From an uncultured Fusobacteriaceae bacterium (lineage in GTDB: Bacteria; Fusobacteriota; Fusobacteriia; Fusobacteriales; Fusobacteriaceae), in contig CAMQWJ010000006.1 in NCBI GenBank assembly GCA_947038515.1, positions 46,765 to 110,764 on the forward strand: a DNA stretch of 64,000 nt. The letters are read 5' to 3'. A program made the translations under genes and the position numbers. Under the pieces are notes generated by a model, which was not told the origin of the DNA, ran no database searches, and saw nothing but the letters and a program-made list of their open reading frames with translations. Positions 31,232 through 59,532 of the stretch are shown one piece after another (the stretch's first letter is position 1; every line of letters begins with the position of its first letter).

Positions 31232-31268
31232 TTTTAACCCTCCTAATAATAAATAATTTATAATTTTT

Positions 31269-32826: not shown

Positions 32827-34194
32827 TTAAATCGGAAGTTTGAATAATATTATACTAAATATTACCATTGCAAATAGAGCAAAAGGATAAGTTGCTCCAT
32901 AACCTGCAGCAGGGTCATCAGTTCCTATAGCATCTATTGCAACACCTAATCCTGGTGTCGATGTCATCCCACCACAAATTGCACCTGAAAGCATTATCCA
33001 GTTAATACCTAAAGCATATCGCCCTACTATAAATCCTGACACCATTCCAGCTGTTCCCACAACAACTGCAATTAATGACAACCACAGCCCTACTCCTGAA
33101 AGAGAATTAATAGCAGTATATCCATATCTTAAACCAACAATTGCAATAAACATTGCAAGTCCTATATCTCGTATTCCTGATAATATTCGTTTATCCATTC
33201 TAAAGCATAGTCCAAAAAACTTTCCGATATGTGCAAAGACTAAACCTATTATAAGAATTCCCCCTGTTGAACTGAGGGAAAATAACCCTAGTGGACCCAT
33301 TTTAATTTTTAATGTTCCTACAAAATATCCAACTACACACACCATCATAAAAGCAGTCAAATCAAAAATCACCGGTGTTATCTCTTTTCTTGTATCACTA
33401 CTATTTTTTTCTTCCATTTCTTTATTAAATTTTCTACTTTCCTCTTCCATATTAATTTTAAAAATTTTAGGTAGAAGTTTAATAGCTAAAATAACTATTA
33501 TTACACCCCATGGATATCCTACAGCATATCCTATTCCTATATTTGCTTCTGCATTTGATAAAAATTTATTTTTTTGATCTTCTGATAGTTTTTTAGTATT
33601 ATTGACTTTTAATTCTGGATCTCCTATCATCTTAAGAATTTTTTCTTTCCCCTTTACATCTTGCTGTTCATAAAGTTCTATCACTTCTTTTGATTGGCTT
33701 TTTCCTGTTTCTATTGCTGCAGCTAGTCCTGGTGAACTAGTAAGTGCTCCTGTATATACTCCAACCAATTGATAGGCATTACTTTTATTACTTATTTTTG
33801 TCATCAAATAAGTGGTCCCAGCACTAACAAAAGTAATTAAAAAACCTAATATTATAAACTTAAAACCATATTTCTTTATAACTACTCCAACTTTCTCTCC
33901 TGCTAATAGACCTACTGCTGCTACAAACAAAATCAAAAACATAGAAAAGAACGTATCGTCTACAACAGACCTTGAAATTAAAGAATTGGCAACTTTTAAA
34001 ATTTTAGGACTCGTACTTGGATCCAACACGATAGTTAATGCATATTTTTTTACAAGCCACCCAATAATCAAGCCCAAAAATATTATTCCAGAACTTCCTA
34101 TTTTCAATATTTTTCCTAAAAGCAACCCTACAACTACTGTAAAAAACATTAAAACAAATTGATTCATAACAAAACTTTGCAAGTCAAATTCCAT
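32827..34194 (-). CDS. Two-domain membrane transporter (YidE/YbjL/AspT-like AAE-type permease), putative succinate uptake
   Basis: Two hydrophobic halves separated by a charged cytoplasmic linker. Start moved to MEFDL (GGGGG RBS) because the upstream ATG lies inside a palindrome. Confidence 0.45.
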   Translation of the reverse strand: MEFDLQSFVMNQFVLMFFTVVVGLLLGKILKIGSSGIIFLGLIIGWLVKKYALTIVLDPSTSPKILKVANSLISRSVVDDTFFSMFLILFVAAVGLLAGEKVGVVIKKYGFKFIILGFLITFVSAGTTYLMTKISNKSNAYQLVGVYTGALTSSPGLAAAIETGKSQSKEVIELYEQQDVKGKEKILKMIGDPELKVNNTKKLSEDQKNKFLSNAEANIGIGYAVGYPWGVIIVILAIKLLPKIFKINMEEESRKFNKEMEEKNSSDTRKEITPVIFDLTAFMMVCVVGYFVGTLKIKMGPLGLFSLSSTGGILIIGLVFAHIGKFFGLCFRMDKRILSGIRDIGLAMFIAIVGLRYGYTAINSLSGVGLWLSLIAVVVGTAGMVSGFIVGRYALGINWIMLSGAICGGMTSTPGLGVAIDAIGTDDPAAGYGATYPFALFAMVIFSIILFKLPI

Positions 34195-34241
34195 AGTATT
34201 TCCCCCTTTTTCTTTTATACTACTCTCTTTCATCTTCTTTT

Positions 34242-34285
34242 TTAAGAAACAAAAAGTCATCTAGCTATAACTTTTTGTTTCTTAA
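34242..34285. repeat. Palindrome copy A: ttaagaaacaaaaagt(12)actttttgtttcttaa
   Basis: Perfect 16-bp inverted repeat at the 5' end of the mmd operon. Shares its core with copy B at 35389-35432. Confidence 0.6.
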
Positions 34286-38600: not shown

Positions 38601-38785
38601 GCTATCACCCCATTATTTATGATACTTATCTTTTCACCTTCTATATTAAGTCCATCTTTCACAATATTTCCATTTATAAAATCTTCAGTTATTTCTATTC
38701 CATATCCTATACTTGAACTAACTATAAATAATGCAGTTATTAAACTCCCTATCTTTAAGCGTTCACTAATCTTTTTCTTTTTCAT
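35681..38785 (-). CDS. Type Va autotransporter adhesin (repetitive passenger plus C-terminal beta-barrel)
   Basis: Signal peptide. Passenger rich in NNG(I/V)I(x)G repeats. C-terminal beta-barrel domain ending in aromatic F (VGVGYKF). Confidence 0.7.
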   Translation of the reverse strand: MKKKKISERLKIGSLITALFIVSSSIGYGIEITEDFINGNIVKDGLNIEGEKISIINNGVIAAQYDDYNDAGGNGITIREERMSSDEPGSLLKVVNNGMIKGEYESDISNPFTANGINIQLDTKEVSLEKIENNGIIMGKNSDILNYGANGIYINSFEKVVVENISNNGIISGESSKFNHWVKVGNGIDITGDILVVENNGVIKGINNTLTLEDVSGSSIASNTGNGVAVNGELKKVNNSGIFSGSISNDWNNSGNGLKGRNIGAITNSGVIKGSHQAVKGAFTSLINGGILAGKTIVDSVANLTNHGIEITLNADNSGNITQITNGRSGIVDVGGVNKTVLNGTGIGTVARPDTVITVPTGGTTVDSYLLSESLINNGANLIINGAGINKGALVTKENSETTLSDSIVNGYKTALYLEDGSKVTATNTIFNGGGLKNDVAVIRGSEGNNDITLLGNSIINGSVDLGNGDDTLLLANTTQINGALNGGTGGEGEKGDVLGLGKNTTTKISTNLNVLHNISGFETINTNGDVTLFETITVTDAANISLESGNLTLRVDPTKTLDGKVIGHALYGNTGNLSSTGGNLVVGLNGLGVDTIVSMGGTTITPETNDSWWKDSDHIKTNSLVLDGKLSADGSDINITLKENIPLDPSIPVDPPVIDGVLYEKLNQVYKSIASSGEIGTLAKTTLLDDKTYNESLGGLLTALDQIYANNPYAYTLKSSRDSLKLFEDNMSYLTIKPKINEWIVQGKAIYTGIINDNEASGKNYYGFDTGHRNYKTTTNTIGGIATAEYGLTDKSSVGFVLGGNNQDIKFRGTSEINGTSMYLGSFAKTEINNFKFMTGLGYQYTSADVNRGVSNDYDSFKTDDRYNINSFNTFVEAKYSLRLEDNLTIEPKTRLSYYYVSQESVNEGHTPGELSIAVDRATSSTADAEVGVDFIKTVYIPSGKIKNILSIGVISTLGSKEKSLDGYVVGNGKNGSKFEIQGIELPQITGKIAYNIEVEQDKGMIYSAGINYEFAKDYNRNINVSVGVGYKF

Positions 38786-45469: not shown

Positions 45470-46306
45470 TTATGGAATAGATTGTATTGGAACTAAAATT
45501 TCAGTTATAAATTTATTTTCATCACTAAAAGTCCAATAATCAACGACATACCTTTCATAACATTTATCCACATATTCATATCCACATTTTTTTAACCAAT
45601 CCTGCATTTTTTTATAAGCTATTTTTATATTATTATATGGTCCTATATAATAATAACTTGCCACCAATATATCACCAAAATCTAGTAACTGCTCAGACTC
45701 GCATTTTTCTAAACATTTTTGCATTATTTTTACATCTGTACATTTTTCTAAACATTTATTTTCAAATGAAGAAAATTCTATTATTACTGGTCCAGCTATC
45801 ATATTTTTCATTTTTTCAATATAGTTATTAAATTCTATATTAACTATTGAATTCATGTATTTATATTCAAACTTTTGTTCCAAAAACATCATCTTTGTCT
45901 TTTTAAACATTTTTATATTGATGTCCATTGGTTTTTCTGCTACAACTGTTTTAGCCTCTTTAATAAGGTCTAACCATTCTTTTACTGCCTTTTTCTTTGT
46001 TTTTAATTCCCCTTCCAAAATCTCTAATTCTCTTATTTTATCATTAAATTTTTCTTCTATATTTCCAGGATGAAAATCAAATTTATTAATCATTTTTTTT
46101 ATATCATCCAACTTAAATCCACTTTGCTTATAGTATTTTATTATTGGTATTTTATGTAATTCTTCTTCTGTATAGCTTCTATATTTATTGGTATTTGGAA
46201 TCCCTGAAGGACAAAGCAAACCTATCTCATCATAATATCTTAGGGTTCTTTTACTTATTTTACAAATTTTTTCTACCTCTCCAATGCGATATTTCTTCTC
46301 ACTCAT
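45470..46306 (-). CDS. MerR-family regulator with C-terminal GyrI-like effector-binding domain (BmrR/Mta-like)
   Basis: N-terminal MerR HTH (YRIGEVEKICKISKRTLRYYDEIGLL). C-terminal small-molecule-binding GyrI-like domain. Confidence 0.7.
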   Translation of the reverse strand: MSEKKYRIGEVEKICKISKRTLRYYDEIGLLCPSGIPNTNKYRSYTEEELHKIPIIKYYKQSGFKLDDIKKMINKFDFHPGNIEEKFNDKIRELEILEGELKTKKKAVKEWLDLIKEAKTVVAEKPMDINIKMFKKTKMMFLEQKFEYKYMNSIVNIEFNNYIEKMKNMIAGPVIIEFSSFENKCLEKCTDVKIMQKCLEKCESEQLLDFGDILVASYYYIGPYNNIKIAYKKMQDWLKKCGYEYVDKCYERYVVDYWTFSDENKFITEILVPIQSIP

Positions 46307-46522
46307 ATAATTCTCCCCGCAATTTTTTTAACTAATAAAATAATATTCTATTCTTCACTTATTAGTTAGATTATTGTGTTCAGTCTTAGATATAAAAATG
46401 ATATCAAATTTCTTCATTCACATTATTAAAATATTTTAAATCTTCCCTTAAATTATTTCTTTACAATTAATCTCCTCTTCAAGTCTCTGCTTTTCCTAAC
46501 ATAAATTTTTTCTTATCACAGC

Positions 46523-46969
46523 TTAATTTTTTTCTAGCCAATTAGCAGGGTATACAACATATATAAATTTACTATATTCAGGAGCACTAAACTTAATTTT
46601 AGAATTTCTAGGAATTAATATCACATCACCTTTTTCTCCTACTATTTTCCTGTCATCAATAATTATTTCAAGACGTCCTTCAATAATATAATCAATTTCA
46701 TCATATACTAATTCCCAATCAAATGTACTTTTTGTTATTTCCATTATTCCAGCACCTATTCTAGGACTTTCTTCTAAAGTGAATAATTTTTTTACATAAA
46801 CTTGATCATTAGAATTTCCTGTCTCCAGTCTTATTTTTTCAATTTCTTCACACTTAATAACTCCAATACCACTTTTATCTATAATTTTTGATACTTTTTT
46901 TGAGGTACTAAATTCTTTTTCAATCGCTTTTTTTATAATTTTATTTATTTCTTCATTAGTAATTTTCAA
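46523..46969 (-). CDS. EutQ-like cupin protein of the BMC locus
   Basis: C-terminal cupin barrel (GDVILIPRNSKIKFSAPE) as in EutQ. Last gene of the locus. Confidence 0.6.
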   Translation of the reverse strand: MKITNEEINKIIKKAIEKEFSTSKKVSKIIDKSGIGVIKCEEIEKIRLETGNSNDQVYVKKLFTLEESPRIGAGIMEITKSTFDWELVYDEIDYIIEGRLEIIIDDRKIVGEKGDVILIPRNSKIKFSAPEYSKFIYVVYPANWLEKN

Positions 46970-47003
46970 TTTTAAACCTCCTAACTAAGACTTATAAATA
47001 TTT

Positions 47004-47270
47004 TTATTTGTTTTTTATTTTTTCGATTATTTCTTTTATTTGTTCAATTCCTAGTGCATTATAATTTTCTTTCAATATTTCTTTTATTATTATTTCACAA
47101 GCTTTAATAGAATTTATATTTATATTTTCTTTTTCATACACTATATCTATTTTTTCTTTTTTTAAATAATCTTCTATTGAAGAAGTTATAATCATATTTT
47201 TCTTTTTATAAAATTTATTTTCTGTTATATAGTCATTAATTTTTTCTAATTTCACTAATTCTCTTTTCAT
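47004..47270 (-). CDS. Hypothetical 88-aa protein, translationally coupled to the BMC-P gene
   Basis: Start 1 nt after BMC-P stop. No recognisable domain. Lys/Glu-rich helical. Confidence 0.35.
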   Translation of the reverse strand: MKRELVKLEKINDYITENKFYKKKNMIITSSIEDYLKKEKIDIVYEKENININSIKACEIIIKEILKENYNALGIEQIKEIIEKIKNK

Positions 47271-47271
47271 T

Positions 47272-47520
47272 TTAATTCTCCTCCTTCTCATCTATAATTC
47301 CGATAGTGATTGCATCAATTGGTAATGATTTTGTTGTTAAACCATTTTGGGCTCCAGTGCCTCTGGTAATTATAACCCTATCACCTATCCCAGCCCCTAT
47401 TGAATCAGACACAACTATTTTTTCACCAGCTTCAAGTTCTACTATTAAAAATGTTATTCCGTACAATGAAGGATCTTTTCTAGTCGCCCATACATTTCCA
47501 ACTATTTTTCCTATTATCAT
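47272..47520 (-). CDS. BMC vertex protein (BMC-P; EutN/PduN/CcmL family)
   Basis: MIIGKIVGNVWATRKD ... GAGIGDRVIITRG is the typical EutN/CcmL fold sequence. Confidence 0.8.
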   Translation of the reverse strand: MIIGKIVGNVWATRKDPSLYGITFLIVELEAGEKIVVSDSIGAGIGDRVIITRGTGAQNGLTTKSLPIDAITIGIIDEKEEN

Positions 47521-47665
47521 TTTTCACCTTCTTATTATTTCAATATTATTATTTTTAATTTCATCCTTAACTAATTCCATTCTAATTGTTTCTTACAAAT
47601 TAATTATAATATTATTTTTTCATCTAATATCATTTCAATAATTTTCTTTTTTTCTTTATTCCTCA

Positions 47666-48394
47666 TTACTCGTAAATTTCTCCATAAGAATCTTTCGATA
47701 TGTAAAATGCATTTGCCTCATCATAATCTATATGCATATTTAAAATAAATTTATTATCTACCCTTACCAAAACATTCTCAAATATTCCAGAACGTTCACT
47801 AACAATTTTTACTTTTATTAAGTCATTATCTTTTACATTCAACCTATTGGCGTCTTTTTCATTCATATGTATGTGATTCCTAGCTATAATCACACCTTTA
47901 TCTATATAAACAAAGTTTTTTCCATTACTCATTAAAATTCCTGGAGTGCCATCTATTAAACCTGAATTTCTTAAAACAGCATTCACACCTAATATTCTAG
48001 AATCTGTTAATGATAATTCAACTTGTGTTTCTTTTCTCATTGGTCCTAATATTACTACATTTTCTATAATTCCTTTACTTCCTATTAATCTTACCCTTTC
48101 TTTATAGGCGTATTGTCCCAATTGAGAAAGTTCTTTTGATATGGTAAAAACATATCCTGTTCCAAATAATATATCAGCCTCTTTTTGAGAAAGATGTATA
48201 TGTCTACCTGAAGCTTCTATAGGAATTTTAATTTTATTATTCTCTTCTATTTTGGACTCTTCTATCAACTTTATTGACTTTTGAGCCATATATTCCCTTG
48301 CCGATGGAGTTATTACTGTTTTTTTATCTACCTTTATCTCTTTTATATTTTCTTTATTATAAAGAAGCTTTAATTTTTCTTCTGTCAACACCAT
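47666..48394 (-). CDS. PduL-type phosphotransacylase
   Basis: GRHIHLS and a second HIH motif, characteristic of the PduL metal sites. 242 aa. Confidence 0.75.
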   Translation of the reverse strand: MVLTEEKLKLLYNKENIKEIKVDKKTVITPSAREYMAQKSIKLIEESKIEENNKIKIPIEASGRHIHLSQKEADILFGTGYVFTISKELSQLGQYAYKERVRLIGSKGIIENVVILGPMRKETQVELSLTDSRILGVNAVLRNSGLIDGTPGILMSNGKNFVYIDKGVIIARNHIHMNEKDANRLNVKDNDLIKVKIVSERSGIFENVLVRVDNKFILNMHIDYDEANAFYISKDSYGEIYE

Positions 48395-48404
48395 AATTTT
48401 CTCC

Positions 48405-49859
48405 CTATTTCTCTAGAATTCCTTCCATTATTTTTCTTACTAACTCTTCTATATTTTTCTCTTTTGTAAAATCATGATCTATCTCTTCATTTTTTCTTAT
48501 ACACTCTATTTCTTTTATTCCCCAAGCTGCTTTTCTTACATTAATTAAATTTAAAGGAGTTATATTGTCTGAAGTTGAACTTCCACCAACTGCACCACAT
48601 CCTAGAGTCAATGCTGGTGCCAAATTTGTTGTTGCCCCTAAACCACCCAAAGCTCCCGGAGTATTTATAAGTAATCTTGACACTGGTTTTTTTAATGCAA
48701 ACTCTTTTATTATATCTCTATTTTCTGAATGTATTACTGTTGTATGTCCAATCCCCTCTATATTCAATATTTCTATAGCCCTTTCACAGGCTTTTTCCCA
48801 ATTTTTTTCTACATAAAATGCTAATATTGGTGCTAATTTTTCTCTTGAATATGGATTTTTTTTAGAAGCATTCTCTTCTTTTGAGATTATTACTCTTGTT
48901 CCTTTAGGAAACTGTAAATTTGCAAGTTCACCCAATTTTTCGACACTTTTTCCTACTATTTGTGGATTCATACTTCCGTTAGCTCTTAAAATAAATTCAC
49001 CTAATTTTTTAGATTCTTCTCTTGTTAAAAAATAGCCACCTTGTTCTTTTAGTTCTCTCACCACTTCTTCTTCACTAATTTCTTCTACGATAATCGACTG
49101 CTCCGATGCACAAATTACTCCATTATCAAAAGTTTTACTATCCAATATTCTTTTAACTGCTAATTTTTTATTAGCACTTCTTTCTATGAAGGCTGGACCA
49201 TTTCCTGGACCTACTCCTATTGCAGGATTACCAGATTTATAAGCAGCTTTGACCATTGCTTCTCCACCTGTAGCCAATATCATTGCTATCCCCTCGTGTT
49301 TCATTAATTCTTCTGTTGCCTCCATAGTTATCAAGGTTGTTACTCCTATTAATCCTTCCGGTGCCCCAGCTTCCATGGACAACTCTTTAAGAAGATTTAC
49401 TGTTTCGATTATACATTTTTTCGCATTAGGATGTGGACTAATTATTATTCCATTTCCGGCTTTTAAAGAAATCAAAACTTTATAAATTGTTGTTGAAGTT
49501 GGATTTGTTGAAGGAATTAAACCTGCAATTATCCCCATTGGGACCCCTATTTCTATTGTTTCATTTTCTTCCTTTAAAACGCCAACTGTTTTCATATTTT
49601 TTATATATTCATATACATTCACTGATGCAAAATTATTTTTTATTATTTTATCTTCATATTTTCCAAATCCTGTCTCTTCTATTGCCATTTTTGCTAATTT
49701 TTCACTATGTTTTCTTATCCCCATTGACATTTTATAAATTACATCATCTATTTTTTTTTGAGAAAATAAAGAATATTTTTTTTGTGCTTCCTTGGATTTT
49801 TCTATTAAATCTCTCACCTGCTGTCTTGATTCTAAATCTCTATCCATTTTTTCCTCCAT
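48405..49859 (-). CDS. CoA-acylating aldehyde dehydrogenase (EutE/PduP-type), catalytically intact copy
   Basis: PSTNPTST, SPHPNAKK and catalytic cysteine in FDNGVICASEQS align with E. coli EutE FDNNIICADEK. C-terminal amphipathic helix IEELVRKIMEGILEK. Confidence 0.8.
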   Translation of the reverse strand: MEEKMDRDLESRQQVRDLIEKSKEAQKKYSLFSQKKIDDVIYKMSMGIRKHSEKLAKMAIEETGFGKYEDKIIKNNFASVNVYEYIKNMKTVGVLKEENETIEIGVPMGIIAGLIPSTNPTSTTIYKVLISLKAGNGIIISPHPNAKKCIIETVNLLKELSMEAGAPEGLIGVTTLITMEATEELMKHEGIAMILATGGEAMVKAAYKSGNPAIGVGPGNGPAFIERSANKKLAVKRILDSKTFDNGVICASEQSIIVEEISEEEVVRELKEQGGYFLTREESKKLGEFILRANGSMNPQIVGKSVEKLGELANLQFPKGTRVIISKEENASKKNPYSREKLAPILAFYVEKNWEKACERAIEILNIEGIGHTTVIHSENRDIIKEFALKKPVSRLLINTPGALGGLGATTNLAPALTLGCGAVGGSSTSDNITPLNLINVRKAAWGIKEIECIRKNEEIDHDFTKEKNIEELVRKIMEGILEK

Positions 49860-50034
49860 TTTTTATGTTCTCAACTTAAGTTATATAAGGGTAATTATAA
49901 TTTTCAACTCTTTAATTACCTTTCCTGCAATTAAAACTACTGCTCTCTCTATTAAATCAACTCCATAACCCTAGACTAATTTCAAAACTTCAATATCAGT
50001 ATTTTTAAGTACACGACCCAACCTCTTATTTTAT

Positions 50035-50061
50035 GAGAAACCCCTTAAATTGGGGTTTCTC
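50035..50061 (-). other. Intra-operon stem-loop gagaaacccc-ttaaatt-ggggtttctc between the BMC-H gene and the active aldehyde dehydrogenase gene
   Basis: Perfect 10-bp stem with no T-run, inside a 213-nt intergenic gap of an otherwise tightly packed operon. Confidence 0.5.
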
Positions 50062-50072
50062 ACTTACTTTAA

Positions 50073-50354
50073 TTATTTTATTTCTGGTAAAATTGTTTCC
50101 ACATCTGAATGTGGTCTTGGAATTACATGAACAGAAATTAATTGTCCTATTCTATCTGCTGCTGCTGCTCCTGCATCTGTTGCCGCTTTAACCGCACCTA
50201 CATCTCCACGAACTAGTACAGTTACCAACCCTCCGCCTACCATTTCTTTTCCTATCAAAGTAACATTTGCTGCTTTAACCATTGCATCTGCTGCTTCTAT
50301 TGCTGCTACCAATCCTTTTGTTTCTATCATTCCTAATGCATTTAATGTTGCCAT
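50073..50354 (-). CDS. BMC-H shell protein (PduA/EutM-like)
   Basis: [26 protein letters not shown] canonical Pfam00936 sequence. 93 aa. Confidence 0.85.
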
Positions 50355-50359
50355 TTAAA

Positions 50360-50857
50360 TCAACTCCCTTTTTTAGTTTTTTTTATTTTTTTGGTTTTTA
50401 CTGCCATTTTAGGTTGAGAACTATCCTCTTTAGACTCCAACACTTCTAAAGTCTCTACATCATTTTTTTTCATAATTAAATCTCTTATTACTATATTTTC
50501 TTCATTAGTTTTTGTTATATCATCTATTTTTTTCTTTTCTATTTTTTCATGAGCTTTATCTAACAATTCAAATATTTCTAAATCAGGCCTCGCCATTATA
50601 TTACTACTCATATACACACCTAATTTTTTTGTTGCTTCAACTGCTGCTTCTATTGCCACCTCTATGGAACCTATATCTCCTATGAATTCCACCGTTACAA
50701 TTCCACCTTTTATCAAATGTTTATTATATATCTTTACATTTGAAGTTTTGCAGGCCACATCACAGGCTTCTATTATCCCTAACATACCTTTTGTTTCTAT
50801 CAAACCCAAAGCGTTCATAAGTTCCCCCATTGCCATTCTTCGGCTTTTTTCTAACAT
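50360..50857 (-). CDS. BMC-H shell protein with Lys-rich C-terminal extension (PduK/EutK-like)
   Basis: BMC-H domain (ALGLIETKGMLGIIEACDVA) plus a tail of about 70 aa. Start may be internal (MGELMNALG). Confidence 0.7.
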   Translation of the reverse strand: MLEKSRRMAMGELMNALGLIETKGMLGIIEACDVACKTSNVKIYNKHLIKGGIVTVEFIGDIGSIEVAIEAAVEATKKLGVYMSSNIMARPDLEIFELLDKAHEKIEKKKIDDITKTNEENIVIRDLIMKKNDVETLEVLESKEDSSQPKMAVKTKKIKKTKKGS

Positions 50858-50862
50858 TTTTT

Positions 50863-52398
50863 TTAATTATTTTTTTTTAAAGTTTCGACTATTTCATCAA
50901 TAAACTTTAGAAGTTTCACCTCTTCTATCTTACTATCATTAAATTGTTTTTCTTGTTTTAAAGTTTCTATTTCTTTAGTTTGATAACAATTATATTTTTT
51001 TCCTTCTAATACTTCAGGAATTTTTATTTTATCATCATTACTTTCTATCAAGCCACAATCAGATATTCCACATCTAATTTCTACTCTTTTTGAAAATTTG
51101 AACGGTTCTACATCTTCTAATAATATTTTTTTTCTTGCTTTTTTATACATGTGGTTATAAAACTCTTCATTTTTAGTATCATTTTTTCTTCCTATCTCTA
51201 CTCTTTCTATATTTAAAAAAATATTTATTTCTAATTCCACAGAAATTTTTTCTATTACTTGTAAATCTTCAGTATAAACATTTATTCCTTGGATTTTTTC
51301 CTCATTGGCAAGCTCTCTACAAATATCACACCCTTCTTTAAGGTCTTTAACAATATAAAAGTCAATTACTACTCCATTTTCAAATGTTAATGGTCTTTCA
51401 TTTTTTATACTATTTTGTTTCCTTACTAGAACTTTCGTATCAAATGGTATTTTTATTTTTGCTTTTTCAGAAATAAATTCTACTGACTCTCCAACATACT
51501 CCAACTTTATTTTATTTTCTTGATATAAAGTCTTATAAAGTTGTTCATTTTCTTCTTCGTTCATAAAATAAGCACCTTGATTTTCCAACTCTCCAATAAT
51601 TTCTTTTTCATTAAAAGCTTCACAAATTATAAAATTTTCTGATACAGGTATCATACCATTATTAAATCTTTTATTTCCTATAAAATTTTTTATAGCCTTC
51701 TCTATTACTCCTGTTTTTTCTATATAAACTAAATTACTTTTGTTTACAAGACTCAATAATAAGACATTCGAGTCTTGTAAATTTTTAATTTTTTTTGATA
51801 TATCAGTGCCTATAACAAGAGCAATTTCCTTTTGTTTCACCAGCTCCAAAGCTCCCACTTCAGAATAGGTTTCTATGCTACTTATAATATTATTCGGAGC
51901 TCCGGCTTCAATGGCTGCCTCATTTAACATTTTTACAACCATAGCTACAGATTTTTCTACTTTTGAATAAGGTAAAAACATTATTGCATTCTTTGATTTA
52001 ATCGCATTGATAACTCTAAAAATTAATATTGAAGTCACATTTATTACTGGTAATAACCCCAAAATCAAGCCTAATGGTTTTCCAATAACAAGTTTTTTTT
52101 CTTTTACATTAGTTTCTAGTATCCCTATTGTTTTTATTAATTTTATCTCTTCATATAAAATTGATGAGGCTATATTATTCAGATATTTTTTATCATCAGC
52201 ATTTCCTTTTCCTATTGCTTCAATTTCTATAGCTCCTAACCAATCTTCATTTTTTTTTATAGCTTTAACTATATTCAATAATATCATATCGATTTGGTCA
52301 TTAGTATATTTTTCAATTTTTTTAGCTGCAATTTTTCCTTTTCTAGCTAAATTTCTTGAACATTGTCTTAGCTCTAAATCTTTATCAACATTTTGCAA
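50863..52398 (-). CDS. Aldehyde dehydrogenase-fold paralogue B, predicted inactive (catalytic Cys replaced by Pro; degenerate cofactor motifs); 511 aa with C-terminal extension
   Basis: Aligns with EutE throughout. Has FNNGMIPVSENF where the active copy has FDNGVICASEQS. STNP/HP motifs degenerate. C-terminal helix EEVKLLKFIDEIVETLKK. Confidence 0.65.
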   Translation of the reverse strand: MQNVDKDLELRQCSRNLARKGKIAAKKIEKYTNDQIDMILLNIVKAIKKNEDWLGAIEIEAIGKGNADDKKYLNNIASSILYEEIKLIKTIGILETNVKEKKLVIGKPLGLILGLLPVINVTSILIFRVINAIKSKNAIMFLPYSKVEKSVAMVVKMLNEAAIEAGAPNNIISSIETYSEVGALELVKQKEIALVIGTDISKKIKNLQDSNVLLLSLVNKSNLVYIEKTGVIEKAIKNFIGNKRFNNGMIPVSENFIICEAFNEKEIIGELENQGAYFMNEEENEQLYKTLYQENKIKLEYVGESVEFISEKAKIKIPFDTKVLVRKQNSIKNERPLTFENGVVIDFYIVKDLKEGCDICRELANEEKIQGINVYTEDLQVIEKISVELEINIFLNIERVEIGRKNDTKNEEFYNHMYKKARKKILLEDVEPFKFSKRVEIRCGISDCGLIESNDDKIKIPEVLEGKKYNCYQTKEIETLKQEKQFNDSKIEEVKLLKFIDEIVETLKKNN

Positions 52399-52424
52399 CT
52401 ATTCCTCCTCACTGAACAAAAAGC

Positions 52425-53390
52425 TTAATGTTTAATAATTTTTACTTGAAAATCATAATTTTTAATCCAAGTTTCAATACAATCCAATTCTTCATTACTT
52501 ATACTAGGATCTTCTTCCATTAAATACTCTAGCCCTAACTGTTTATACTTCTGTATTCCCATTTTATGATATGGCAATAAGTCTATACCTTTAAAATTCT
52601 TATAATTTTTATATGGTTTTAAAAATTCCATAATTTTTTCAATATCTTCTTTTTTATCATTAATTCCTTTTAAAATCGGCATTCTAATCTGAACATTATT
52701 ATTGTTTTCTATCAATTTAGAAATATTTTTTAAAATGCTTTCATTTCTAACTCCTGTCCATTCAAGATGTTTTTCAGAATTAATATTTTTAATATCTATC
52801 AAAAACAAATCTGTAAATTCTGCAACTTTTAAAATTGTTTCCTCTGATGCAAATCCAGAAGTCTCGATTGCAGTATTTATTCCTGAATATTTACAAGCCA
52901 TTAATAAATTTAGTGCTGCCTCTGGTTGCATTAAAACCTCTCCACCACCAAGAGTCACTCCACCACCAGAAGTCTCATAAAAAGTTCTGTCTGATTCTAT
53001 TATTTCTAAAAGTTCAGATATTGTTTTACCTTCCCCCACAACACTTAATGCTGTTTTATAACACACTTCTTCACACTTTCCACAACCTATACACTCAATA
53101 TTTCTATTAATTATATGTGTCCTTGTTTCTTTATCTATTTCATGAATTCCTTTTGGACAAATTTTTACACATTCTCCACAATCATTACATAGATTTTCTC
53201 TAAACATAACCTTAAATTTTTTCTCTAAACCTTCAGGATTTGCGCACCACTTACATCGAAGTGGGCAACCTTGAAAAAAAATTATAGTTCGTAACCCTGG
53301 ACCATCGTACATATTATATTTTTGAATATTAAAAATCATTGCTTTTCTTTCAATAATCATATTTTTTTTACACATATATAAATTCTCCAA
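52425..53390 (-). CDS. cutD: Glycyl-radical enzyme activating enzyme (CutD-like)
   Basis: CPLRCKWCANP radical SAM motif plus two ferredoxin-like Cys clusters (CNDCGECVKICP, CIGCGKCEEVC). True start probably internal (MIFNIQKY). Confidence 0.8.
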   Translation of the reverse strand: MENLYMCKKNMIIERKAMIFNIQKYNMYDGPGLRTIIFFQGCPLRCKWCANPEGLEKKFKVMFRENLCNDCGECVKICPKGIHEIDKETRTHIINRNIECIGCGKCEEVCYKTALSVVGEGKTISELLEIIESDRTFYETSGGGVTLGGGEVLMQPEAALNLLMACKYSGINTAIETSGFASEETILKVAEFTDLFLIDIKNINSEKHLEWTGVRNESILKNISKLIENNNNVQIRMPILKGINDKKEDIEKIMEFLKPYKNYKNFKGIDLLPYHKMGIQKYKQLGLEYLMEEDPSISNEELDCIETWIKNYDFQVKIIKH

Positions 53391-53427
53391 TTTGTTTTAA
53401 TTATTATTAGTATTTCTACTTTTTAAT

Positions 53428-55962
53428 CTATAATTGCTTTAAAACTGTTCTACTTATAATTTCATCCTGAACATCCTTACATAATTCTACAAAATATGCA
53501 CTATATCCTGCAACACGAACTATTAAATCTCTATAATTTTCTGGATTCTTTTGTGCTTCCAACAAAGTTTCGTTATCTAAATAGTTAAATTGTATTTCTC
53601 CTAATTGTAAAGTACAAGCACTACGCAATAATGAAATTATACCATTTTCACCTTCTGGTGTTTCTAAAAGTCCAGCAATTAATTTAAAGTTATGTACCAT
53701 ACCTATATTCATGCTATCACATGCCATTTTAGAAACTGATTTCATAATCGCAGTTGGACCATTTACATCTGCTCCTTGAGTTGGACTAATTCCATCAGAT
53801 AATGGAGTCCATGCTTTTCTTCCATTAGGTGTTGCTCCTAATAATTGACCAAAAGGTGTATTATTAGATATTGATAGAGTTCCATGACTTAGAACAGAAT
53901 AAAGAGTTTTATATTTACGATGCTCCATTTCTGTATAGTTAATTAATTCGGCTGCTATAAAGTCTACATAATCATCATCATTCCCATATTTAGGTACATC
54001 TAGACAGTCTTTTCTTATTTTTTCATAACCTACAAAGTCTTTATTTAAAACCTCTTTCATTTCTCTTAAAGTATATTTTTTTTCTTCAAAAACTAGTTTT
54101 TTTATAGCTGCCATTGAGTCAACATGTGTTGCAAGACCACTCCAAACTACACCTGGTCCAAAATTATACATTGCCCCTCCAGCTTCAACACCTCTTCCTT
54201 TTTCCATACATCCTTCAAACATTAAAGACATCAATGGTTTTGGTGCTACGTCTTTATGAACTCTTTGAGTTATTACTGTTGCAATGCTTGACCATTTCGT
54301 TATATAGTTTATCTGTTCTTTTACTGCATTTTCAAATTCCTCATAAGTTTTAAAGTTATCTATATCGCCACAATCAGGAGTTACTTTTTTCCCATACCAT
54401 GATGGAACTCCATTATTTAAAACTAATTCAATACAGATTGGCCACTGAGTGTACGCTGTTGAAGTCCACTGATATAATCTTCCTGATTTCTGAGGTTCTA
54501 CGCATCCCATCAAACAATAATCTCTTGCATCTTCTATTGAAACTCCTTTTGCCAACATCATTTTTATATGAACATCATCAAAATGACAAGCAGGGAATCC
54601 TACTCCAGCTTTTATAACATCTACTATTTTTTTCAAATATTTTTGAGGTGATGATTTATGAATACGACAAGAGAGTGTTGGTTGATAAATTTTTACATGT
54701 CTTACTGCATCCATTAATAAATATGTCAAATCATTTGTAGCATCTCGCCCTGCTCTTGTTATTCCTCCAACACACATATTAATAAATGGTTGGTATCCTG
54801 CAAAAAATTTTGATCCACCCTCACTTGTTATCCACATCATTTCTGACATTTTTATAAGCATGCAGCCAGCTAATTCAAAGGCTTCAAATTCTGTCATTTT
54901 TTTATTCTCAATATCATTTTTATAAAATGGGTACATATATTGATCCACACGTCCAATAGACATTCCAGTTTGATTTTCTTCTACTAATAATAAAGATTCA
55001 ATAGTCCAAACCGATTGAATAGCTTCCCAAAAATTATTTGGTTTATTAGCAGGAACTCTTGAATTAACTTCTGATATTTTTAGCAATTCTGCTTTTCTTT
55101 TAGTATTTGTCTCTTTTTGAGCTAATTCATAAGCATAATCTGACATACGCTTTGCATATATCATAACTCCCTCAGCTGTATCTATTACTGATTTATAAAA
55201 ATATATTTTATCAATATCTTCTGGATTTTCATATTTAAGAGTTAATAATTTTTCTTCTGCTTCCTTTTTTATATCTAACATTCCTTTTTTCATTAGAATT
55301 ACATCATAACCTGGATTAGAATCTCCACCACCATTTACAGCATGGTATGAGCAATCTGATACAAATGATTCTCCCGAAAGTTCCCACACTCCCGCTTCTC
55401 TAAATTGGTCTTCACAAGCCTCATCTACAGATTTTCCTTTCCAAAATGGAAATAATTCTTCTCTCATAACTTTTTTATCTTCTTCTGAAATATAGAAAGG
55501 ATCTTGCGGTCTTGTAGCAATAGTTTCTATTTCTGTTTCCATCCATCTCCATGCTATATCAGGAGCAAACGAACCAGCTCTAGGGGCCCCGTTAGGTGCT
55601 CCAACAATCAACTCATGATCTTGTATTACTAATGGAGCAGTTTCACAACAATACTTAAATGATTTTCCTCTTAATATTGATTTTGGCAATCCTGGGTTTT
55701 CTTTAGCTATTTTTGTTATAGCTTTTGCTCTATGAATTGTTATACTTGGAGTATGCTTCAAATAACTTTCTTTTAACTTTTTCAAACGACTTGTAATTCC
55801 TTCTGGAATACAATCGCTACTAGCTTCACAACCACTCATAACTTCTTTTTCAGATATTTCTTTTGAAACTTCTTCAAACACCCTAATTATAGCATTTCTT
55901 TCCTCTTCAGACATATCTTTTGTACTATTAACAAATTTATCAATAATTTCTTTAATTTCCAT
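53428..55962 (-). CDS. cutC: Glycyl radical enzyme, choline trimethylamine-lyase (CutC)-like
   Basis: 844 aa. Glycine-radical motif RVAGYSAYF (G819). CutC-diagnostic residues all present at aligned positions: Y206, D214 (VNGGGDS), F385, F391, C485, E487 (MGCVEP), T498, Y502. Confidence 0.75.
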
Positions 55963-56001
55963 TTTATCCTCCTAGTATTTAAATAATATAATCATTAACA
56001 T

Positions 56002-57501
56002 CTAATTTTTTTCAGATATTTCTTTTAATATTTTTTTTATCAACGCTTCCAAATCAATTGATTCTTCCCCAAATTTATTTTTTACATCACATTCCAAATT
56101 ATTTTCTGAAGAATATTTTTTTAAGAATTCGTCTACATCTCTTACTTCGTATCCAACTTTTCTTATATATATCAAATTCATTGGAGATATATTGTCCGAT
56201 GTAATTCCATTTCCAACTAAACCGCTACCTAAAGTCATGGCTGGAAAAAGATTTGTTGTCCCACCTATACTACCAAAAGCTCCTGGTGTATTTACCAAAA
56301 TTCTTCCAACTGGTTTTTTCATTATAAATTGATTAATAACATCTTCATCTTTCGAATGAATAATAAGTGTATGTCCTTGCTTACCACTTAATAATAGCTC
56401 TATACACTTTTCACAAGCATTTTGCCAATCAGGTTCTACATAAAATGATATTACAGGACACAATTTTTCTTTAGAATATAGACTCTCTTTTGAAATATAT
56501 TTCGGAGTAACAATTAATAATTTTATATCTTTATCAATTTTAAAATTAGCTTTTTGGGATAACCACTGTGGTGATTTTCCCATACATTCTTTTTCAATTT
56601 CTCCATGTTTATCAAATAAAATCTTCATCAAATTTTCTGTTTCTGATTCTTTCATAAAATAGGCACCATTTATTTCTAACTCACATTTAACTTCTTTTTC
56701 AATACACCCATCTACAACTATAGAATGTTCTGCTCCTGGCATAACTCCATAATCAAAACTTTTACTAATAACAACATCTCTCACTGCCTTCTGTATATTT
56801 GCTGTCTTTTCAATAAAAACAGGGGCATTTCCGATCGTTCCATAAATTACCTGTTTTCCTGATTTTTGCATTTCCTCCAATAATTCCTTAACACCTGTAT
56901 TTAATATTAAACTCGTATCTCTATGATGAATTAATTCCTTAGAGCCATTAAAAGAAAGATTTTCTAAATATGATAATGCTCCCTCTGGTAATCCTGCTTC
57001 TTCTCCTGCTTTTATCAAAATATCCAAAGTTTTTTTCATTATATTTTTTGCTTTAAGATGTCTTGAAAAAACAATTGTATTTCCTGATTTTATTGCTAGT
57101 ATTGCTTTAGATACAATAGTTGATACAGGGCTAATCGTTGAACAAAAAGCAACTATTACTCCTAGAGGGACTCCTACACTTAAAACTTTATTAATTTTAT
57201 CATTTTCTATTAATCCAACACACTTCATATCTTTAAGTTTATTTCTTAAAGAATCATTAATATATTTATCTTTAATTAATTTGTCTTTCCAATTACCTTG
57301 TCTTGTTTCCTCATATGACTCTCTTGATAAACTCTCTAAATTTTTATCTATTTCATCTAACATCTTTTCAACTATTTCATCTATTTTTTCTTGTGATAGT
57401 ACAACTGTTTTCTTCTGAGCTTCCCTTGCATTTTCAACAAGAATTCTAGCCTCTTGTATAGAAAGTAAATCATTATCTATTATATTCATATCGCTCCTCA
57501 A
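56002..57501 (-). CDS. Aldehyde dehydrogenase-fold paralogue A, predicted inactive (catalytic Cys replaced by Pro)
   Basis: FDYGVMPGAEHS at the catalytic-Cys position. STNP replaced by STISP and HP by HL. C-terminal helix IDLEALIKKILKEI. Confidence 0.65.
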   Translation of the reverse strand: MRSDMNIIDNDLLSIQEARILVENAREAQKKTVVLSQEKIDEIVEKMLDEIDKNLESLSRESYEETRQGNWKDKLIKDKYINDSLRNKLKDMKCVGLIENDKINKVLSVGVPLGVIVAFCSTISPVSTIVSKAILAIKSGNTIVFSRHLKAKNIMKKTLDILIKAGEEAGLPEGALSYLENLSFNGSKELIHHRDTSLILNTGVKELLEEMQKSGKQVIYGTIGNAPVFIEKTANIQKAVRDVVISKSFDYGVMPGAEHSIVVDGCIEKEVKCELEINGAYFMKESETENLMKILFDKHGEIEKECMGKSPQWLSQKANFKIDKDIKLLIVTPKYISKESLYSKEKLCPVISFYVEPDWQNACEKCIELLLSGKQGHTLIIHSKDEDVINQFIMKKPVGRILVNTPGAFGSIGGTTNLFPAMTLGSGLVGNGITSDNISPMNLIYIRKVGYEVRDVDEFLKKYSSENNLECDVKNKFGEESIDLEALIKKILKEISEKN

Positions 57502-57504
57502 TAT

Positions 57505-57804
57505 CTATATGATTTCTAAAGCATATTTTTTTATAATTTTCCACAAATCATCATGAGGTCTTGCTATTACGATATCACTATATAAATTTCCACCTTCCAT
57601 TGATTTTACTGCCTTGACTCCTGCTTCTACAGCAGCACTACAAGCTCCAACATCACCTGTTACTATCACACTTATATAACCCGACGCTACATTTGTATAT
57701 CCTACTATTTCAACATTTGCTGCTTTACACATGGCATCTGCTGCTTCCAGTGCAAAAACTAAACCGAAAGTCTCTATTAAACCAATTGCTTTATAATTCA
57801 TCAC
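57505..57804 (-). CDS. BMC-H shell protein
   Basis: AIGLIETFGLVFALEAADAMCKAANV. 99 aa. Confidence 0.85.
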   Translation of the reverse strand: MMNYKAIGLIETFGLVFALEAADAMCKAANVEIVGYTNVASGYISVIVTGDVGACSAAVEAGVKAVKSMEGGNLYSDIVIARPHDDLWKIIKKYALEII

Positions 57805-57824
57805 TTTATCTTCAACTCCTTATT

Positions 57825-58118
57825 TTAATCAATATCATGAACAGATACAATTTTCCCCACTTGCTTTATCGGTCGTGGCATTACATTTTTAGCTGTTAAA
57901 GTTCCTACTTCCCTAGCTGCTTCTGCTCCTGCTTCTACAGCTGAAGAAACTGCTCCTACATCCCCTTTTACTATTATAGTAACAAGAGTAGAACCTATAT
58001 TTTCATAAGAAATTAATTCTACATCTGCTGCTTTTAACATCTTATCTGCTGCATAAAGTGCTGGAGCTAACCCCAATGTTTCTATCAATCCTAAAGCTTC
58101 TTCTTCACAATACTTCAT
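57825..58118 (-). CDS. BMC-H shell protein
   Basis: ALGLIETLGLAPALYAADKMLKAADV. Start at MKYCEEE with GGGGGG RBS. Confidence 0.8.
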   Translation of the reverse strand: MKYCEEEALGLIETLGLAPALYAADKMLKAADVELISYENIGSTLVTIIVKGDVGAVSSAVEAGAEAAREVGTLTAKNVMPRPIKQVGKIVSVHDID

Positions 58119-58157
58119 TTTAAGTCCCCCCATATATTTTTATTTAATTATTATTTT

Positions 58158-58424
58158 TTAATCTTTTATAAAACTATTTATTGTCTTTTTACTCTCTTCA
58201 TTCGCTCTATAAAATATTAATAATTCTCCATTTTTATCTAATTCAAAACTTTTTTCCTCAATTAACCCATTAGCTTCTGCAGTCATTAAAGCATGACTTA
58301 TAGAATTTTTATTAAATGCTCTATGTGTAGAATACTCCTTCTTTAAATCATTCATCACTTCTTCTACTGTACCTTCTTCTACTCTTGTAAAATATTTTAA
58401 AATTGCATAATTAAGGGGTTTCAT
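58158..58424 (-). CDS. Hypothetical 88-aa protein (possible winged-helix-like), coupled to the permease gene
   Basis: Start 1 nt after permease stop. No confident domain. Confidence 0.35.
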   Translation of the reverse strand: MKPLNYAILKYFTRVEEGTVEEVMNDLKKEYSTHRAFNKNSISHALMTAEANGLIEEKSFELDKNGELLIFYRANEESKKTINSFIKD

Positions 58425-58425
58425 T

Positions 58426-59532
58426 TTACAGTACCTCCTGTTTTTTTTTTCTAAATAAGTCAAGTGGATTCATAGCAATTATCAATATTCCTATCATCAT
58501 AATTACAGCTCCAATCCATGCTACTAACGGTAAATTCCAACCTTCTATACCATTCATAACTCCTAATATTAAATAACAGAACAAAGGACCAAAAAATGAG
58601 TACGTTCCATTACATGCTGTCCCTAACCCTGCTCCACACATACTATTTCCTGCATACCATGTCATAAATGTTAAAAATGTTGCTAATCCGCTCAAGACAA
58701 ACCAAAACATTGCTGATGGACTTGTAAAAGCTAATACTGCCAAGTCAATAGGAATATTTATATCTCCAGCCATAATTCCTAACAATGGTAAAACTATAAA
58801 TAAATTACCTATTCCAGATGATAGTTGACGAATACAAATACCAATCTGTGGATCAACCATTGCAGAAGCATATCCTGCAACACATCCTTCAAATCCCCAT
58901 CCTATTGCCGCTATTACAGCTATTCCAAATCCTATAAAGACTACTTTAGAAAATTCCCCTTCCATACCTGTACTTCCTATTAAAAAACTTGCTAAAACGC
59001 AAATAACTATTCCTAACCCCATACGTTTACTGATTTCTTGCTTATAAAATATTTTTCCTAAAATTGCTGCTATCGCAGGACAAAGTGCCGAAATTGGCAC
59101 CACTATAGAACCTGCCATTTTTAGAGCAACTACATAAGCTGTTCCAGCTATAGGTCCTCCTACAAAGGCTGCCAACATAATTGTTCTTCCCGGTTTTGTA
59201 TTTAAACACCTTAGAAAATCTTTAAATTTTCCTTGAATAACTGAGTTCCCTATAGCCCAAAATGCACTACAAGTATCATTAATCGCATTTCCTAAAGAAG
59301 CTAATAGATACACTATTACAAATGCTGAAAGTCCACTTTTATTTACTCCATACCAATCTTCCCAAACTCCTCTCTTCATTCCCATCATTAAAAGTGCTGT
59401 ATAAAGTCCATATGAAGCTCCTGAAAATAGACCTATCATTATTCCTTTTTTGAAAAAATTCTGTTTCATCTCTCTCATTAAACTAATGGCGTCTTTTCCT
59501 TTGGTTGTAGTTTCTGATGCGATTCTTGACAT
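58426..59532 (-). CDS. Polytopic permease, first gene of the BMC locus (possibly EutH-family facilitator; substrate unknown, choline or ethanolamine candidate)
   Basis: About 10 TM helices, 368 aa. Size and position resemble EutH, but sequence-level assignment is not certain. Confidence 0.4.
   Translation of the reverse strand: MSRIASETTTKGKDAISLMREMKQNFFKKGIMIGLFSGASYGLYTALLMMGMKRGVWEDWYGVNKSGLSAFVIVYLLASLGNAINDTCSAFWAIGNSVIQGKFKDFLRCLNTKPGRTIMLAAFVGGPIAGTAYVVALKMAGSIVVPISALCPAIAAILGKIFYKQEISKRMGLGIVICVLASFLIGSTGMEGEFSKVVFIGFGIAVIAAIGWGFEGCVAGYASAMVDPQIGICIRQLSSGIGNLFIVLPLLGIMAGDINIPIDLAVLAFTSPSAMFWFVLSGLATFLTFMTWYAGNSMCGAGLGTACNGTYSFFGPLFCYLILGVMNGIEGWNLPLVAWIGAVIMMIGILIIAMNPLDLFRKKKQEVL

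Follow-up and report, generated by a model that had tools for sequence, protein, structure and literature searches.

In GRM1 microcompartment loci, a second aldehyde dehydrogenase (AldDH) in which the catalytic cysteine is replaced by serine or proline was described by Axen et al. 2014 (PMC4207490), who likened this inactive protein to defunct carboxysome domains and suggested that it might serve as a scaffold or regulator. C-terminal encapsulation peptides (EPs) have been reported on both active and inactive GRM1 AldDHs (Aussignargues et al. 2015, PMC4594438), and the inactive copy is marked in both GRM1A and GRM1B (Sutter et al. 2021, PMC8217296). We found no experimental test of the scaffold idea in the literature searched. 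Three further systems are close enough to be compared here, namely the catalytic CutF-type aldehyde dehydrogenase (ALDH) of GRM1 loci (type I BMC AldDh, TIGR02518), EutE of the EUT2 ethanolamine systems (such as the Listeria protein 3k9d and those of Fusobacterium and Cetobacterium), and carboxysomal CcmM with its gamma-carbonic anhydrase (gamma-CA) and SSUL domains.

We analyzed a 64,000-nucleotide stretch of contig CAMQWJ010000006.1 from an uncultured Fusobacteriaceae bacterium (hereafter the window), which contains a choline trimethylamine-lyase (CutC) microcompartment locus with three ALDH-fold genes, designated ALDH-A, ALDH-B, and ALDH-C. An earlier note on this sequence had proposed that ALDH-A and ALDH-B lost the catalytic Cys at the same residue under selection for a non-catalytic, possibly scaffolding role, and had treated such Cys-less ALDHs as potentially unreported in glycyl radical enzyme (GRE)-type microcompartments. 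The latter does not hold, as the three publications cited above already describe them; for A-type proteins, neither the Cys-less second AldDH nor the scaffold idea is new, both having been in print since 2014. What appears to be new concerns ALDH-B. The explanation that we favor, and consider fairly probable, is that the locus is a mosaic GRM1/cut operon whose three ALDH-fold genes have three different origins, ALDH-B being a CutF-type enzyme that degenerated after it had been displaced. Three loci were used for comparison: a GRM1 locus with CutF from a Fusobacteriaceae metagenome-assembled genome (L005), a canonical EUT2 locus (L085), and a sister mosaic locus (L086).

Loss of catalytic residues in ALDH-A and ALDH-B

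All three ALDH-fold open reading frames (ORFs) lie on the minus strand where the earlier note had placed them, and all three match Pfam PF00171. Pairwise phmmer alignments with 3k9d and 5j78 set Pro255 of ALDH-A and Pro251 of ALDH-B on the catalytic Cys and show that ALDH-C retains this residue (Cys250, codon TGT), in agreement with what had been read from the letters. Within the F-D-N-G-x-I-C-A-S-E loop, the Cys is found in 34/34 CutF-type and 119/119 Fusobacteriaceae EutE sequences, and Pro stands in its place in ALDH-A and ALDH-B.

The reported degeneration of the cofactor motifs was likewise confirmed. Of 97 alignment positions showing conservation of 95% or more among 27 catalytic acylating ALDHs, ALDH-C retains the conserved residue at all 97, ALDH-A at 59, and ALDH-B at 38. 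The PSTNP motif has become STISP in ALDH-A and PVINV in ALDH-B, SPHP has become SRHL and LPYS, ATGG has become NTGV and GTDI, and GVGPGNGP has become YGTIGNAP and SLVNKSNL, respectively. In PduP of R. palustris, His449-Thr450 form the proton relay and Glu419 binds ribose (PMC5311937); when matched by motif position, ALDH-A keeps these residues (H377, T378, and E345), and ALDH-B keeps E340, with Gln370 replacing the proton-relay His. TIGR02518, the NCBIfam equivalog model for acetylating acetaldehyde dehydrogenase (curated cut-off 620.1 bits), scores ALDH-C and the CutF of L005 above its cut-off (752.9 and 769.5 bits) and ALDH-A and ALDH-B below it (492.0 and 281.4 bits), the match of ALDH-B being restricted to model positions 1-388. 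A recent gene conversion between ALDH-A and ALDH-B around the Pro codon was considered and rejected, as no nucleotide match between them is better than 70% over 206 nt and the two Pro codons differ (CCA vs CCT).

Ancestry of ALDH-B

Hidden Markov models (HMMs) were built from GRM1 loci for the A family (famA) and for the catalytic CutF type (famC). ALDH-B scores 336 bits with famC vs 206 bits with famA, and at 65 sites that discriminate between the two families it shows the catalytic state at 24 and the A state at 7. Of 100 neighbor-joining bootstraps, 98 place it within the catalytic clade, where its branch is 4-5-fold longer than those of its neighbors. ALDH-B is also collinear with the CutF of L005 (residues 1-508 vs 6-532, 36% identity, E 1e-109), and the alignment of 527 columns contains 19 gap positions. 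The Gly-rich C-terminal active-site loops of CutF align to it without gaps and with almost zero identity, the glycines being replaced by Lys, Glu, and Asn, while the CutF tail KVQIPDIFQEKKYNCC…ELLELVNKIVATMKG aligns with the ALDH-B tail KIKIPEVLEGKKYNCY…KLLKFIDEIVETLKK, the two having an IPxVLxGKKYNC motif and a terminal helix in common. Two base substitutions separate the Pro251 codon of ALDH-B (CCT) from the TGT of CutF.

Collinearity, tail motif, terminal helix, and phylogenetic grouping are thus features that ALDH-B has in common with CutF-type enzymes. In contrast to them, it is devoid of the Cys, the relay His, the NAD-binding glycines, and the C-terminal loops, it evolves 4-5 times faster, and the catalytic role in its locus is filled by a EutE-type enzyme. 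Two other origins were rejected. Descent from a duplicate of ALDH-A, with a shared loss of the Cys, is contradicted by the HMM scores, the diagnostic sites, the tree, and the tail collinearity, all of which side with CutF; acquisition of the last 120 residues as a foreign fused domain is contradicted by their gap-free alignment to the C-terminal loops and tail of CutF. The 229-aa gene next to CutD in L005, on its downstream side, showed no homology to ALDH-B. ALDH-B is thus most likely a degenerate descendant of the original catalytic CutF-type enzyme of the locus. The Cys losses in ALDH-A and ALDH-B are independent, the former old and family-wide and the latter recent and lineage-specific, and the shared position does not reflect a single selective story.

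Above 40% identity, only the species-level cluster to which ALDH-B itself belongs (99% identity) was retrieved from 5.8 billion proteins in a word-indexed search and from 1.84 billion proteins in an exhaustive phmmer search; the next-best match outside this cluster is an ordinary Cys-bearing ALDH (39%). Cys-less ALDHs of the A type are widespread in GRM1 loci. A third ALDH was found in none of 80 GRM1 loci of other species over the region covered by this census, which extends from the A-type gene to approximately 10 kb downstream (the catalytic copy falls outside the 10-kb flank in 41 of them). Neither B-like genes nor tail mini-ORFs turned up in two metagenome scans, for which the tail alignment and full-length ALDH-B, respectively, served as queries.

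Mosaic operon and origin of ALDH-C

A gene-by-gene comparison of window positions 45470-59532 with L005, L085, and L086 reveals a mosaic. The upstream half (EamA-type transporter gene, 88-aa ORF, two BMC-H genes, ALDH-A, CutC, and CutD) is GRM1-like, with 63-87% identity to L005/L086. The downstream half (two BMC-H genes, ALDH-C, PduL, EutN, a small ORF, and EutQ) is EUT2-like, with 53-98% identity to L085 vs 30-85% to L005. Its BMC-H pair shows 64% and 98% identity to L085 vs 42% and 85% to L005, and PduL, EutN, the small ORF, and EutQ show 75, 82, 53, and 73% identity to L085 vs 47%, 51%, no match, and 30% to L005.

ALDH-C probably starts at ATG 49847 (480 aa), as a Shine-Dalgarno sequence lies inside the longer ORF. 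It matches 3k9d with 619 bits, its nearest relatives are EutE proteins of Cetobacterium, Psychrilyobacter, and Fusobacterium (67-73% identity), and a relative with 84% identity is encoded in the canonical EutABC ethanolamine operon of L085. ALDH-C is not of the CutF type; it is a Fusobacteriaceae EutE that apparently took over catalysis. It agrees with EutE of EUT2 in this identity and in all 97 conserved columns, but differs in being located in a CutC locus, where it would presumably oxidize acetaldehyde derived from choline rather than from ethanolamine by the same chemistry. A P218S substitution (484-aa numbering; P214S in the 480-aa numbering) occurs in its GVGPGNGP cofactor loop in some strains (L001 and L002), so that a motif which is invariant elsewhere is polymorphic in the sole catalytic ALDH of the locus.

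A further trace of the EUT2 module is found in PduL (242 aa), the first 43-50 residues of which (48260-48394) match the N terminus of EutT, a cobalamin adenosyltransferase, with 63-64% identity to L085/L086. In both L085 and L086, a EutT gene precedes PduL. The remnant looks like a deletion scar, left when the B12-related EutT would have been removed from a B12-independent organelle.

The sister locus L086 is mosaic in the same manner (CutC 87%, ALDH-A 69%, and ALDH-C 79% identical) and still has EutT. Directly after its CutD, in the position of ALDH-B, there is only a 55-aa ORF (L086 7262-7429; MKDILKDKKIEEIKIPDVLKGKKYNCYESSNKITEEIKRKEFLELVNKIIISLKN) with its own GAGG ribosome-binding site, which carries the CutF/ALDH-B tail motif IPDVLKGKKYNCY and a terminal amphipathic helix. 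This ORF matches the ALDH-B tail (tblastn E 5e-5, 68% over 19 aa) and the CutF tail as well. It could encode a free-standing EP-like mini-protein or could be a mere remnant of a deletion.

Is ALDH-B retained or decaying?

Translation of ALDH-B would begin at a TTG codon with AGGAGG upstream at the proper distance, and its codon adaptation index (CAI) of 0.70 equals that of CutC. Residues 1-390 were modeled confidently by AlphaFold and match 5j78 and 3k9d in Foldseek with a target-normalized template modeling (TM) score of 0.80 and a root-mean-square deviation of 2.2 Å. From residue 391 onward (391-493; approximately the last 120 residues), only 1 of 16 conserved columns is kept, and the predicted local distance difference test (pLDDT) scores of residues 391-493 are 22-35, delineating a low-confidence linker of approximately 100 aa that precedes a terminal helix at 490-510. 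Thus, of the earlier description of ALDH-B as full-length, intact, and with a conserved fold, the intact ORF stands, but resemblance to an ALDH body is limited to residues 1-390.

The less likely alternative that deserves most weight is that ALDH-B is a functionless relic nearing deletion, made redundant by ALDH-C, and that its ORF has stayed intact owing to earlier constraint or because truncated products would be toxic and selected against. Its orphan status, both in the protein searches and among the 80 other GRM1 loci, and the deletion of its body in L086 are what would be expected of a relic, as are the nearly complete erosion of its C-terminal columns and the amount of amino-acid polymorphism, which is the highest of the three proteins (4.3 segregating sites per 100 residues vs 2.4 in ALDH-A and 1.5 in ALDH-C). 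Relative to one 99.7%-identical strain, the ratio of nonsynonymous to synonymous differences is 3:2 in ALDH-B vs 2:14 in ALDH-A and CutC together, a difference that is not significant (Fisher p = 0.06). However, there is no in-frame stop in ALDH-B vs a mean of 31 (minimum 14) expected from 300 neutral simulations, which were substitution-only, started from L005 cutF with local base composition, and ran down to the observed 37.5% identity, with all divergence put on the ALDH-B branch and indels ignored. Likewise, the paucity of gaps in the alignment with CutF, the perfect AGGAGG, and the CutC-like CAI are at odds with a relic, and each of the 14 distinct protein variants in public assemblies, which come from dozens of contigs, has a length of 511 aa, with Pro251 fixed. 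The tail motif and terminal helix are preserved both in ALDH-B and in the L086 mini-ORF. Premature stops, lost translation signals, and truncated alleles were all looked for in ALDH-B and not found; judged by its sequence, it is not a neutral pseudogene.

Displacement and degeneration of CutF remains the favored explanation, under which ALDH-B is read as having been kept as a translated non-catalytic protein through most of its divergence, with weaker constraint than ALDH-A, and is probably packaged via its retained CutF tail. Besides the simplifications of the simulation given above, several points weigh against this explanation. The polymorphism of ALDH-B and its ratio of nonsynonymous to synonymous differences fit a fading constraint; the long branch makes its exact placement in the catalytic clade (sister to P0133) unreliable; and the direction of events is based on one Fusobacteriaceae CutF, that of L005, and one sister locus. 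In addition, the ALDH-B body is absent from L086, the closest related locus, implying that a chimeric organelle can work without the body, which weakens the case for the ALDH-B fold as an indispensable scaffold.

ALDH-A belongs to the known inactive GRM1 family

ALDH-A probably starts at ATG 57489 (495 aa), a Shine-Dalgarno sequence again being present inside the longer ORF. It matches 3k9d over its full length (378 bits, Pro on Cys), scores 774 bits with the famA HMM, carries the A state at 53 of the 65 diagnostic sites, and is placed by the tree in the famA clade beside the A-like genes of L086 and L005; ALDH-B falls outside this inactive-copy clade. The AlphaFold2 model of ALDH-A shows a full ALDH fold (mean pLDDT 86) with a helix at 480-494. 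The locus has the setting of the CutB-type inactive family, with CutC/CutD, a Cys-bearing AldDH (ALDH-C), shell genes, PduL, EutN, and EutQ. On these grounds, ALDH-A is an ordinary member of the known GRM1 inactive AldDH family, with which it has in common the location in a CutC/CutD locus directly upstream of cutC (as in all loci inspected, i.e., the window, L005, and L086), the full fold, the replaced Cys, and an EP-like helix. It differs in that ALDH-A and its relatives in L005 and L086 are more degenerate, keeping 57-59 of the 97 catalytic columns vs the 70-74 that are typical of the A family.

Among the 120 best homologues of ALDH-A (56-69% identity, mostly from Clostridium), the residue at the Cys position is Ser in 111, Pro in 4, Ala in 2, and Cys in none, the remaining 3 sequences not fitting the motif used for reading this position. 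A census of 200 A-family sequences, in which these homologues were combined with 80 genomic loci, gave Ser in 191, Pro in 6, Ala in 3, and Cys in none, and in 199 of the 200, Ser also replaces the second active-site Cys (TLGCG). The exchange of Ser, Pro, and Ala for one another at the catalytic-Cys position, in a family that is otherwise conserved, argues that the function retained by the A family does not use the side chain there. Several other cysteines are conserved specifically in the family (A94 97%, A366 100%, A348 90%, A82 83%, and A120 81%), and the window protein has C94, C120, C348, and C366, with N82 in place of the fifth. In a set of 34 genomes used for both, pairwise identity averages 77.6% among A-family proteins vs 83.2% among the catalytic paralogues; the A family is under strong purifying selection and is slightly less conserved than the catalytic enzyme. 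The claim of the earlier note that non-catalytic folds are retained under selection is therefore well supported for ALDH-A by conservation across the family, and only weakly for ALDH-B by the maintenance of its ORF, and the claim that neither gene is a decaying pseudogene has held up, ALDH-A being strongly conserved across genera.

ALDH-A most likely resides in the lumen, packaged there without a catalytic role, as a structural or organizing partner of the cargo. A role of ALDH-A, and perhaps of ALDH-B, as a ligand-binding regulator or buffer (of acetaldehyde, CoA, or NAD(H) in the lumen) or as a modulator of CutC/CutD appears improbable: Axen et al. name "scaffolds or regulators" (PMC4207490), the A family at large has conserved the substrate tunnel and some of the cofactor site, and the gene adjoins cutC, but in the Fusobacteriaceae lineage the conserved columns have dwindled as described and the oxyanion Asn and SPHP are lost. 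That ALDH-A or ALDH-B might still be enzymes with another nucleophile or chemistry (e.g., an acyl-transferase, esterase, or reductase using a different Cys) is very improbable indeed, for although most A-family members have Ser at the Cys site, the relay His-Thr and ribose-binding Glu are kept in ALDH-A, and cysteines such as A94, A366, and A348 are conserved in its family, both window proteins carry Pro, which is no possible nucleophile, Ser, Pro, and Ala are swapped at the site in an otherwise conserved family, the second active-site Cys is almost always Ser, the NAD-binding Gly motifs are altered in ALDH-A and destroyed in ALDH-B, which moreover is devoid of the His and the C-terminal active-site region, and both proteins score below the TIGR02518 cut-off.

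Organization of the locus and neighboring genes

The GRM1/cut microcompartment locus forms one operon-like cluster on the minus strand (45.4-59.6 kb of the window), in the order EamA-type transporter, 88-aa ORF, two BMC-H genes, ALDH-A, CutC, CutD, ALDH-B, two BMC-H genes, ALDH-C, PduL, EutN, small ORF, EutQ, and MerR regulator, followed by rpsL-rpsG-fusA-tuf (Table 1). CutC aligns with D. alaskensis CutC (5fau) over residues 20-841 with 1510 bits; the glycyl-radical enzyme is thus a genuine CutC and marks the locus as one of the GRM1/cut microcompartment type. CutD is 75% and 69% identical to its counterparts in L086 and L005, respectively. Pfam domains and the 5fau match bear out the earlier statement that ALDH-A and ALDH-B lie beside shell genes and CutC/CutD. 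Genes for EutJ, PduS/PduT, BMC-T, and alcohol dehydrogenase, which are typical of Clostridium GRM1 loci, are absent from the cut operon of the window; as the cluster contains no alcohol dehydrogenase gene, NAD+ recycling must come from elsewhere.

Table 1. Features of the cut locus and their positions in the window
Feature	Position	Strand	Basis
EamA-type transporter, GRM1-type operon head	58426-59532	-	Pfam; identity
Conserved 88-aa ORF, GRM1-type operon head (region 58158..59532)	58158-58424	-	Identity to L005/L086
Two BMC-H genes, GRM1 affinity	57505..58133	-	PF00936; 78-83% identity to L005 and L086
ALDH-A, Cys-less ALDH-fold protein, GRM1 "putatively inactive AldDH" (CutB-type)	56002..57501	-	PF00171, 3k9d match, famA clade
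Pro255 codon CCA of ALDH-A at the catalytic-Cys position	56737..56739	-	Alignment
ALDH-A C-terminal amphipathic helix (…SIDLEALIKKILKEISEKN), EP-like	56005..56064	-	Sequence and predicted helix 480-494
CutC, choline trimethylamine-lyase (glycyl radical enzyme)	53428..55962	-	5fau match; PFL-like and Gly_radical domains
CutD, glycyl-radical activating enzyme	52425..53390	-	Radical_SAM and Fer4 domains
ALDH-B, probable degenerate Cys-less descendant of CutF-type catalytic GRM1 ALDH	50863..52398	-	Collinearity, tree, HMM
Pro251 codon CCT of ALDH-B at the catalytic-Cys position	51646..51648	-	Alignment
ALDH-B residues 391-489, degenerated C-terminal part of ALDH domain and linker, predicted unstructured	50932..51228	-	CutF alignment, pLDDT
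ALDH-B tail motif KIKIPEVLEGKKYNCYQTK	50977..51033	-	Common to L005 CutF tail and L086 55-aa ORF
ALDH-B C-terminal amphipathic helix (…EEVKLLKFIDEIVETLKK), EP-like	50869..50931	-	Homologous to CutF tail helix ELLELVNKIVATMKG; predicted helix 490-510
Two BMC-H genes (165 aa, 93 aa), EUT2 affinity	50073..50857	-	PF00936; identity to L085
ALDH-C, catalytically competent acetylating acetaldehyde dehydrogenase, Fusobacteriaceae EutE type	48405..49859	-	3k9d, TIGR02518, conserved columns
Catalytic Cys250 codon TGT of ALDH-C	49110..49112	-	Alignment
Operon tail, EUT2-derived	46523..48394	-	Pfam and identity to L085
PduL	47666-48394	-	Pfam
EutN	47272-47520	-	Pfam
Small ORF between EutN and EutQ	47004-47291	-	Position; 53% identity to L085
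EutQ	46523-46969	-	Pfam

Several smaller features of the cluster were also noted. In each of the three cut loci of Fusobacteriaceae type, the EamA transporter gene is separated from the first shell gene by the 88-aa ORF, which has no Pfam match and 68-73% identity to its counterparts (L005 9072-9338 and L086 1241-1507). The small ORF between EutN and EutQ encodes a Lys/Ile/Glu-rich protein of 88-95 aa, again without Pfam match, and occupies the same position in L085. The BMC-H gene adjoining ALDH-B downstream (50360-50857; 165 aa) encodes a Lys/Glu-rich C-terminal extension of approximately 70 residues and has the lowest CAI in the operon (0.55).

Outside the cut locus, window positions 24098-34260 and 35681-38785 contain a methylmalonyl-CoA pathway cluster (mutase, MeaB, carboxyltransferase, beta subunit of a Na+-pumping decarboxylase, CoA transferase, and a permease of the Asp-Al_Ex family) and a 1034-aa autotransporter, both of which would fit a succinate/propionate-fermenting diderm such as a member of the Fusobacteriaceae. 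The window also contains the 3-deoxy-D-manno-octulosonate (KDO)-pathway genes kdsA and kpsF, and its EF-Tu clusters with those of Cetobacterium and Fusobacterium; together with the autotransporter, these features point to a Fusobacteriaceae-like organism.

Proposed history and significance

In the simplest history under the favored explanation, a Fusobacteriaceae GRM1 locus may have gained the aldehyde-processing half of a EUT2 operon, by replacement of its downstream half or by merger with it. The incoming module would have brought the EutE-type ALDH-C together with PduL, EutN, and EutQ and would have made CutF catalytically redundant; CutF may then have degenerated to ALDH-B in the window lineage and been deleted down to its tail in the L086 lineage. 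In ALDH-B, such degeneration would have removed the Cys, the relay His, the NAD-binding glycines, and nearly the whole C-terminal active-site region, and would have spared the ORF and its strong ribosome-binding site, the ALDH-like body (residues 1-390), and the tail inherited from CutF, including the terminal amphipathic helix. The loss of catalytic residues is best explained by the redundancy that arose once ALDH-C had arrived with the EUT2-derived half-operon.

In the organelle, CutC/CutD would convert choline to trimethylamine and acetaldehyde, ALDH-C alone would convert acetaldehyde to acetyl-CoA, and PduL would convert acetyl-CoA to acetyl-phosphate. ALDH-A and, to a lesser degree, ALDH-B may be lumen components without turnover that are recruited via their C-terminal amphipathic helices and contribute to the organization of the core, possibly by oligomerizing as ALDHs do. 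ALDH-B might persist because its body and tail still contribute non-catalytically, e.g., by co-oligomerizing with or tethering cargo, in a role on which constraint would be relaxed and perhaps fading. A more tentative extension, which we regard as rather unlikely, is that ALDH-B is a newborn pseudoenzyme, set free by its replacement and turning into a lumen component in which a disordered linker of approximately 100 residues would join an ALDH body to a helix that binds shell or cargo, thereby independently replaying the route of the CutB-type proteins, and that the 55-aa protein of L086, with tail motif and helix, is its minimal functional remnant, a free-standing encapsulation or tethering peptide. 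The analogy with carboxysomal CcmM extends to the presence of a defunct enzyme fold in a microcompartment operon and to the proposed organizing role; unlike in CcmM, no repeated binding modules or multivalent cargo binding are seen in ALDH-A or ALDH-B, and only ALDH-B has the low-confidence linker.

The practical reach of these findings is modest, as ALDH-B is confined to a single species-level lineage of an uncultured Fusobacteriaceae-like organism, and they should be of moderate interest to microcompartment specialists. Their new content is a Cys-less ALDH that would have arisen independently and recently through the displacement of CutF, of which the sister locus keeps the tail only. In the GRM1/EUT2 mosaic operon, a module of the ethanolamine type provides the aldehyde-processing core for a choline lyase. 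Moreover, an old and strongly conserved dead ALDH (ALDH-A) and a young, independent one (ALDH-B) in the same organelle would amount to a natural experiment, and a comparison of ALDH-A, ALDH-B, and the L086 mini-ORF could tell which part of a dead ALDH counts, the fold or the tail.

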